DNA of 38,184 nt from Atractiella rhizophila. Lineage: Eukaryota. The notes beneath the pieces were generated by a model. It was not told the DNA's origin. It ran no database searches and saw only the letters and a list, made by a program, of their open reading frames with translations. The DNA lies in contig MU271280.1 of NCBI GenBank assembly GCA_021432655.1, forward strand, positions 70,473 to 108,656. The letters run 5' to 3'. This document shows, one piece after another, positions 6,347 through 7,158 of the stretch (the stretch's first letter is position 1; each line of letters starts with the position of its first letter). The translations under genes and the position numbers were made by a program.

Positions 6347-7158
6347 TCAATCAAGCTGAATCACCTCCGTCTCCCCAGACCTTGCTCCTCTGCTTGGCCG
6401 TCCGGGCGAACCACCTTCCTCTGTCAAATCCACCACCTCCTGAACATTTCCTTTCCCTTTCCCTTTCCGCTTCTCGTCATCCTCCTCCAAATTCACAACC
6501 TCCGGTTTCTCCTTAATCTTAAGCTTTGGTTTCAGCGCATAATTCTTCGTCCACTCCCTCGCCGTCTTGTTGAACTGCTCCCGATTCCTATTGTACACTT
6601 GTGCGATCTCCGCAACGAGCGGATCGGCCGGATTGGGATCGCAGAGGAGGGCGGAAATGGAGAGGACGACGGAGAGGATGGAGAGCGCTGGTGACCATTT
6701 GGTCTTTAGGATGTCGAGGCAGATTCCGCCTTGGGCGTTGATATTCGGATGGTAGATTCGAGTTTTGAATACTACTCTAGAAGCCATAACATAACACCCA
6801 CGTTACTCCCTTAACATTACTGGAAAGAAAGAACTGACCGTGGTGCCCGGAATGGATAGTCTTGAGGTAAGGAAATGTCAAGCTTGAATAGTCCTTCTTC
6901 GTAAGGAGAATCCTCTGGTCCCTTGGACCAGCCATCACTGATTCAACTCTGCCACCTTGCTAACAATAAATTGAATTCACCTCCAGTTCAGCGGCCCACT
7001 CAAACAGATTACTCTCATTCTTGATCCATATCCTGGTGAGCATGTCATCAGGTAAGTCAATGGATTCAGAAAGAAACGCACCGACAATTTGGAGGCGTGT
7101 TTTTATCTAAATCTGCTATCTCTTTCGCAATTCGTTTCCCTGCTGGTTTAGGAGGCAT
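6347..7158 (-). CDS. Ubiquitin-conjugating enzyme E2 (Ubc4/5, UBE2D/E-like) with a SIM-rich C-terminal extension, copy 1; 4 exons
   Basis: [95 protein letters not shown]. The HPN motif and catalytic Cys are intact. Confidence 0.93.

Follow-up and report, generated by a model that had tools for sequence, protein, structure and literature searches.

The stretch of DNA analysed here (the window) comprises 38,184 nucleotides of contig MU271280.1 of Atractiella rhizophila, and it carries two nearly identical, expressed copies of a gene for a Ubc4-like ubiquitin-conjugating enzyme (E2). In both copies the catalytic core is followed by a C-terminal tail in which three short motifs are found, each made of a hydrophobic core with acidic residues beside it. 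A preliminary description, made from the sequence alone, had read these as SUMO-interacting motifs (SIMs) and the protein as a candidate SUMO-targeted E2. The features of copy 1 are given below, with the motifs numbered in the order in which they follow the core.

6347 to 7158, minus strand: copy 1 of the tailed E2 gene, four exons, 213 amino acids
7081 to 7158 (ATG at 7158), 6980 to 7031, 6839 to 6920 and 6347 to 6776 (stop codon at 6347-6349), minus strand: the exons of copy 1
6536 to 7158, minus strand: UBC catalytic core, residues 1-151, with the HPN motif at residues 80-82 and C90 as the catalytic residue
6350 to 6535, minus strand: C-terminal tail of 62 residues (152-213), from the translation
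6476 to 6502, minus strand: candidate motif SIM1, EVVNLEEDD, the core VVNL followed by an acidic run; identical in copy 2
6449 to 6472, minus strand: basic stretch KRKGKGKG between SIM1 and SIM2, possible nuclear localisation signal (NLS)
6416 to 6439, minus strand: candidate motif SIM2, EVVDLTEE, which contains VDLT
6350 to 6367, minus strand: candidate motif SIM3, EVIQLD, at the free C-terminus; retained in nearly all members of the clade described below

The spliced coding sequence of copy 1 contains no internal stop codon and its introns have GT..AG ends. Minus-strand translation of 6350-6775 yields the C-terminal half of the UBC core, including the HPN motif, the catalytic Cys and the SPAL loop, followed by the tail, and the remaining exons encode the N-terminal half. 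The tail of about 60 residues announced in the preliminary description was recovered with all its strings, with EVIQLD at the very end. Going outwards from the core, it is organised as a linker, a motif with its acidic residues, a basic cluster, a second motif with its acidic residues, a spacer and a terminal motif that closes on the free carboxylate.

Assembled contigs from four public RNA runs (X1, X15, X16 and X7) were mapped to 6200-7300. The joints 6776>6839 and 7031>7081 are present in X1, X15 and X16, and the joint 6920>6980 in X15 as well. All of them have CT..AC ends on the plus strand, corresponding to GT..AG on the coding strand, and the contigs of X1, X15 and X16 therefore represent spliced transcripts of the copy 1 or copy 2 E2 gene. 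Removal of the tail by splicing, which had been named beforehand as an outcome that would speak against the proposal, is not what the transcripts show: the three introns are confirmed, record 1 of X1 (856 nt) runs without a gap over 6245-6776, spanning the 3' untranslated region, the entire tail and the core exon, and no joint within 6347-6776 was seen in any of the four runs. Coverage in X7, a root metatranscriptome, is confined to 6245-6392. The spliced contig of X1 carries copy-2-specific upstream sequence at its 5' loose end, and variants of both E2 copies are present in X15. Intron 2 (6921-6979) is kept in the X1 and X16 contigs and spliced out in X15; its retention would bring an in-frame stop soon after exon 2, leading to early truncation of the E2.

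The second copy and the duplication that contains both genes are located as follows.

7849 to 8662, minus strand: copy 2 of the E2 gene, exons 8585-8662, 8484-8535, 8343-8424 and 7849-8278
7852 to 8037, minus strand: tail of copy 2, with the candidate SIMs at 7978-8004, 7918-7941 and 7852-7869
5690 to 8710: tandem duplication with units of about 1.5 kb, the first at about 5690-7190 and the second at about 7190-8710

The spliced product of copy 2 is identical to P0003 (NCBI BT69DRAFT_1280019, a hypothetical protein of Atractiella rhizophila). The two units have a mean column identity of 97% (alignment A1), the direct repeats being spaced 1502 and 1504 from start to start, and each unit consists of the E2 gene and the 3' end of a convergent plus-strand gene. 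The convergent gene corresponds to the open reading frame (ORF) 5020-6057, which has no Pfam match, and a 5'-truncated fragment of it (7176-7559) lies between the E2 genes. Between the two copies the core shows six synonymous differences and one non-synonymous difference, and the tail four synonymous and five non-synonymous ones (P162S, N181K, G196E, P198S and S199R in copy 2). None of these five falls in a motif, which suggests constraint on the motifs at the level of sequence; the chance that five changes all miss the 23 motif residues among the 62 is about 0.09 and is not significant by itself. The retention of all three motifs in copy 2 had been offered as an argument for their importance. 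The motifs are indeed unchanged, but as evidence this counts for little because the tandem duplication is recent.

Pfam family UQ_con (PF00179) matched the last exon at E 4e-26, with 91.7 bits where the cut-off is 27, and the match covers residues 1-75 of the exon only. Since the match ends at exon residue 75, the tail lies outside the UBC domain. For the full-length protein P0003, PF00179 is given in the precomputed annotation. H80-P-N82 and C90 are found in both copies; in alignment A3, which includes the tailed relatives, H80, N82 and C90 do not vary. The UBC fold is seen in the AlphaFold2 (AF2) model of P0003, where helix 1 is accompanied by a sheet of four strands and by the C-terminal helices; block means of the predicted local distance difference test (pLDDT) range from 62 to 92 over the core, the N-terminal half being best (about 80-92 across most of residues 11-80). 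Domain, catalytic residues and fold all place the protein in the ubiquitin-conjugating enzyme family. The core also looks catalytically competent, and we read the protein as an active E2 because features for charging and for RING binding are kept (helix-1 K/R, PF loop, SPAL, HPN and the catalytic Cys). At the R26 codon (about 7081-7085, and about 8585-8589 in copy 2) an Arg directly follows the conserved beta-1 Cys, where canonical Ubc4 has Ser; in UbcH5, changing Ser to Arg at this backside position is reported to abolish non-covalent ubiquitin binding.

Tailed relatives in Basidiomycota

A search with the last exon returned P0003 as the sole full-coverage match, together with two further tailed proteins ending in similar strings. 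With a profile built from these three, the best 120 matches listed included about three dozen tailed E2s of 175-316 amino acids, from Rhodotorula, Sporobolomyces, Rhodosporidiobolus, Leucosporidium, Microbotryum, Meredithblackwellia, Cronartium, Phakopsora and Cystobasidium as well as from environmental contigs. A profile of 36 tailed E2s was then compared with 1.84 billion cluster representatives and gave 36,960 matches at E <=0.001, the best 150 of which contain at least ten additional tailed representatives. Nine of them are named, namely Phellopilus, Tulasnella sp. 418/419, Rickenella, Trametes, Kwoniella, Coniophora, Puccinia graminis, Crepidotus and Suillus, and the tailed proteins range over Agaricomycotina and Pucciniomycotina. 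Their labels are generic only, such as 'hypothetical protein', 'ubiquitin-conjugating enzyme/RWD-like' or similar. The Puccinia graminis cluster (P0386) has an extra, uncharacterised member of 119 amino acids on the contig of the full-length gene, which may be a second partial copy, comparable with the duplication in Atractiella.

The relationship of these proteins to canonical Ubc4 was assessed with an unrooted tree of 95 rows and 151 core-only columns, with the tails left out. Six gene models with insertions or deletions (P0144, P0152, P0165, P0166, P0383 and P0387) were omitted, as were P0163 and P0243, in which a complete core was not recognisable. A branch with a support of 98 in the Shimodaira-Hasegawa-like approximate likelihood ratio test (SH-aLRT) has the 48 tailed rows all on the same side, and the sub-clades within them track taxonomy. 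The canonical Ubc4 of Tulasnella, with 148 amino acids (P0174, P0190), is placed far off among the canonical rows, and the tailed Tulasnella protein belongs to the tailed clade. This separate branch, with the canonical Tulasnella Ubc4 elsewhere, makes the tailed E2 a separate paralogue. Judged from the core sequences, it is a previously unnamed paralogue clade of Ubc4-like E2s across Basidiomycota, and on the unrooted tree it was probably already present in the basidiomycete ancestor.

Canonical Ubc4/Ubc5/UBE2D is the E2 subfamily that SUMO-targeted ubiquitin ligases (STUbLs) employ. The tailed clade shares with this subfamily the UBC fold, the HPN motif, the catalytic Cys and the SPAL loop, but adds 23-194 disordered residues with SIM-like motifs. 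The tailed E2 is 56-58% identical to canonical Ubc4, and the Atractiella core is 58% identical to a basidiomycete Ubc4 over 146 residues without a gap. The preliminary description had assigned an intact Ubc4/UBE2D-E core; intact it is, but it is not canonical, given its own branch and its degree of identity to Ubc4. Canonical Ubc4/5/UBE2D membership is ruled out by the separate branch and by the 62-residue extension. The accompanying statement that Ubc4/5-family E2s end right after the core agrees with the retrieved set, in which the core end was recognised in 223 of 233 proteins and 178 of those 223 have 0-4 residues beyond it.

Alignment A3 also revealed that the Pro of the HPN motif (P81 of P0003) is replaced in many clade members. 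Microbotryomycetes have HAN, HCN or HSN at this place, Cystobasidium and three environmental relatives of it have HMN, and HPN is retained in Atractiella and in the rusts.

Conservation of the tail motifs

In the tail part of alignment A3, the only columns conserved at 90% or more correspond to V209 and D213, both in the terminal motif, the remainder being gaps and unalignable sequence rich in S/T/A/P/K. We defined the terminal motif as four core residues of which three or more are V/I/L, then one to three Asp/Glu, then the free carboxylate. It occurs in 39 of 41 tails of at least 15 amino acids, against 0.13 expected by shuffling each tail, and two Microbotryum proteins that the core-end pattern had overlooked carry it as well. 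The two exceptions are P0153, a scallop mis-model, and P0225, an unrelated environmental E2. P0225 stands outside the clade; its tail is a different one, with eight consecutive Asp and IIDS at the end, and might represent an acidic or SIM-like tail of independent origin. Amongst the 54 new representatives with at least 12 residues past the core, none of the 44 that lie outside the clade has the terminal motif.

SIM-like motifs, taken under a stricter rule as a core with an acidic flank, number 92 in 56 tails. Over 200 shuffles the mean was 8.4 and no shuffle gave more than 16, which puts the observed density about eleven-fold above that of the shuffled tails. They occur once in 35 tails, twice in 8, three times in 11 and four times in 2. 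The Atractiella arrangement of two internal motifs and a terminal one recurs, with different spacers, in Puccinia, Kwoniella, Coniophora, Crepidotus and Suillus. The motifs are thus conserved against divergent spacers, which is the pattern that the preliminary description had proposed to look for in fungal homologues. They are not readily attributed to chance because they persist in the orthologues where everything around them has turned over, and on this pattern of sequence conservation the tail very probably carries a functional array of linear motifs. Basic clusters such as KRKR, RKR and similar are also enriched: 41 of the 56 tails contain them, where shuffling predicts 20.7. This fits the earlier suggestion that KRKGKGKG is an NLS, and the nuclear localisation of the enzyme is to be taken as putative.

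SUMO as the candidate ligand

A 2025 review (PMC12751080) defines a SIM by a core of four residues, three or more of them hydrophobic and V, L or I in particular, and by an optional beta-strand extension. The cores of the window motifs (VVNL, VVDL and VIQL) each have at least three V/L/I in four positions, and the flanks EEDD and TEE and the terminal D with the free carboxylate provide the acidic or phosphorylatable stretch looked for next to a SIM core. All three motifs thus agree with the published definition, in line with the SIM type first assigned to them. In many orthologues the flanks consist of Ser/Asp/Glu of the phospho-SIM kind (IEDSDEE, IDISDSDDE; DSDEE- and DDDDD-type). A functional SIM at the extreme C-terminus is also reported for Daxx. 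The SIM cores of RNF4 are given as IELV, VDLT, VDLT and VVIV (PMC3901395), and SIM2 of the window includes VDLT, the core of SIM2 and SIM3 of RNF4.

The tail is also predicted to be accessible. In the AF2 model of P0003 its pLDDT is mostly below 50, nearly without interruption across residues 161-206, with 10-residue block means of 40-48 from residue 161 onwards, and no secondary structure is predicted beyond residue 150. A second AF2 model, that of the Rhodotorula toruloides member P0136 (mean pLDDT 62.9), has a disordered tail likewise. Compared with PDB sequences, the tail alone gave a single match at chance level (E 0.33, an engineered coronavirus spike construct). Prediction of a complex between residues 152-213 and a stand-in SUMO from metagenome locus L090 scored 0.01 against a mark of 0.34, the partner being non-cognate and the run without controls, and this score carries no weight in either direction; the stand-in is a SUMO by its PDB matches (SUMO2 at about 95 bits, Smt3 at about 73 bits).

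A second kind of SUMO-binding sequence, the SOB (SUMO1-binding) motif, is represented in the same review by ESEVEVIHV and DSEVEIVTV, of DPP9 and RNF111 (PMC12751080). The terminal EVEVLV[LI]D of the microbotryomycete proteins (P0012, P0132-P0151) resembles these by eye in the same alternating E-V-E-V start, whereas the window motifs are of the psi-psi-x-psi type, psi standing for a hydrophobic residue.

Some observations weigh against an E2 recruited by SUMO. A SIM is termed a 'loose' motif in the review (PMC12751080), and matches to a simple SIM pattern yield many false positives. The sequences counted above are related to each other, so that the shuffle controls overstate their independence. 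In Microbotryomycetes the only motif, at the terminus, follows a stretch of Lys and not of acid, which is less typical of SIMs, and one SIM offers no avidity for poly-SUMO. Lastly, coexistence of the tailed and the canonical form is shown at the genus level only, in Tulasnella strains. Even with these points considered, the sequence features make SUMO the probable ligand of the tail motifs.

In the form of its array the tail resembles the STUbLs (RNF4, Slx5-Slx8 and RNF111), which likewise have closely set SIMs in a disordered region beside the ubiquitylation machinery; avidity of several SIMs for poly-SUMO is the accepted mechanism of RNF4 (PMC12751080). The difference is that the tailed protein has its SIM-like array on the E2 itself, where STUbLs have theirs on a RING E3. 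By analogy, the tailed E2 would act like a STUbL reader module fused to an E2. Identity with a STUbL itself is ruled out, as the Pfam search of the last exon, which includes the whole tail, found UQ_con only and no RING. In the open full-text literature searched, with subscription-only papers outside the scope, no ubiquitin E2 with SIMs was described.

The alternative that survives best, unlikely as we consider it, is that the terminal strand-plus-acid motifs dock to an E3 or scaffold dedicated to this enzyme and not to SUMO, like the acidic tail of Cdc34/UBE2R1 on the basic canyon of the cullin or the C-terminal anchoring peptides of other E2s. In a review of E2s (PMC4822130), C-terminal extensions are described as conferring E2-specific function, the acidic extension of Cdc34 binding cullin, and disordered or accessory extensions give Cdc34/UBE2R1, UBE2T and UBE2K a specific partner. 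Long Asp runs in several orthologue tails are in keeping with docking of this kind, and the strictly terminal position of the best-conserved motif would suit a pocket that reads the free carboxylate. However, the conserved part is hydrophobic (V/I/L) and not an acidic run, the two to four repeats of the motif in 21 of the 56 tails are typical of SIM arrays, and no partner candidate is known. Unlike the Cdc34/UBE2R1 and UBE2K types, the tailed protein presents a hydrophobic strand with acid at its free C-terminus, with no UBA and no cullin-binding acidic tail. A Cdc34/UBE2R-type E2 as such is ruled out by the gap-free alignment of the core with Ubc4, which leaves no place for the acidic-loop insertion, and by the mixed basic and acidic tail.

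Binding of SUMO might also serve the enzyme itself, if SIM-dependent SUMOylation of the Lys-rich tail or of the core were to switch the activity, stability or localisation of the E2. Several substrates are SUMOylated with the help of their own SIM (PMC12751080), and E2s are regulated by modification (PMC4822130); Lys is abundant beside the motifs, making up 8.7% of the tails. Self-regulation of this kind leaves both the arrays of up to four motifs and the strictly terminal motif unexplained, and alignment A3, inspected by eye, has no conserved psi-K-x-E site. We consider it improbable as the principal role, and note that SUMO self-regulation and SUMO targeting are compatible and not mutually exclusive.

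More improbable still, in our estimate, is that the motifs bind another ubiquitin-like fold, for instance Atg8 through a non-aromatic strand of the type of the LC3-interacting region (LIR) or a ubiquitin-like domain, or that they fold back on the core as an autoinhibitory strand. Beta-strand addition is common to several ubiquitin-like binders, and the backside of the Atractiella core is different in having the Arg after the beta-1 Cys. A canonical LIR is disfavoured by the near absence of aromatic residues from the tails (F, Y and H at no more than 0.3% each, W absent). Autoinhibition in cis finds no echo in the AF2 models of P0003 and P0136, both of which leave the tail undocked from the core, weak evidence in view of the tail pLDDT below 50. 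A last reading, in which the tail would be low-complexity sequence that evolves fast and serves no specific function, its motifs arising by chance, agrees with the unalignable S/A/T/P-rich spacers and with the fact that the tail takes five of the six non-synonymous changes between the window copies, but is contradicted by the conservation of the terminal motif across both sampled basidiomycete subphyla and by the motif density set out above, and is very improbable indeed.

The remainder of the window gives no functional hint. A Pfam scan of 32 other ORFs in it found no SUMO-pathway neighbour; the matches were to forkhead, mitochondrial carrier, OYE-type oxidoreductase, ABC, kinase, RNase H2 subunit C and AMP-binding families. 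ORFs at 1102-2241 (forkhead), 3139-4542 (mitochondrial carrier), 9729-10277 (OYE-type flavin oxidoreductase), 14330-14734 (protein kinase) and 16428-17348 (RNase H2 subunit C) are amongst them.

Proposed role of the tailed E2

Taking the above together, we lean towards the view that the protein is a nuclear E2 which is recruited to SUMO conjugates through its own SIM array, and we do so with less assurance than we attach to SUMO as the ligand. In such a scheme, the four-residue cores rich in V/I/L and their acidic flanks would enter the SIM groove of SUMO by beta-strand addition, and the three motifs jointly would provide avidity toward poly- or multi-SUMOylated proteins. The basic clusters would support entry of the E2 into the nucleus. 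The charged E2~Ub would thus be concentrated on SUMO conjugates, where it could ubiquitylate SUMO or the substrate, with a RING E3 such as a Slx8/RNF4-type ligase as partner or with little help from an E3. SUMO as the ligand, the nuclear localisation and the ubiquitylation outcome are what we infer, whereas the gene model and its expression, the disorder of the tail, the deep conservation of the motifs and their fit to the SIM definition are established by the sequence analysis. The interpretation given in the preliminary description is thus supported in part; its argument from copy 2 has lost most of its force, and the core is not the canonical one.

A wider version of this proposal, which we put forward tentatively and regard as possible rather than likely, is that Basidiomycota have built poly-SUMO recognition into a dedicated nuclear E2 that reads SUMO chains by its own SIM array and ubiquitylates SUMO conjugates. 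Such an enzyme might use a SIM-less RING or no E3 at all, and might replace the Slx5/Rfp-type STUbL subunit, which bears SIMs and is poorly conserved. If true, this would be the first natural case of a SUMO-to-ubiquitin reader module on an E2, retained from the ancestor that mushrooms and rusts share.

In the current view it is E3 ligases, the STUbLs, that read the crosstalk from SUMO to ubiquitin, and Ubc4/5-type E2s are treated as generic and untargeted partners. A conserved E2 paralogue with a SIM array would place the recognition of the substrate signal at the level of the E2, and would allow ubiquitylation steered by a short linear motif, E3-independent or E3-assisted, to be examined in a natural system. 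The clade may also be used as a data set on the retention of SIMs amid turnover, with one strictly terminal motif, zero to three internal ones and unalignable spacers. For the biology of these fungi, it would add an unannotated component of the SUMO pathway to a large phylum that includes rusts, biotechnology yeasts and wood decayers.

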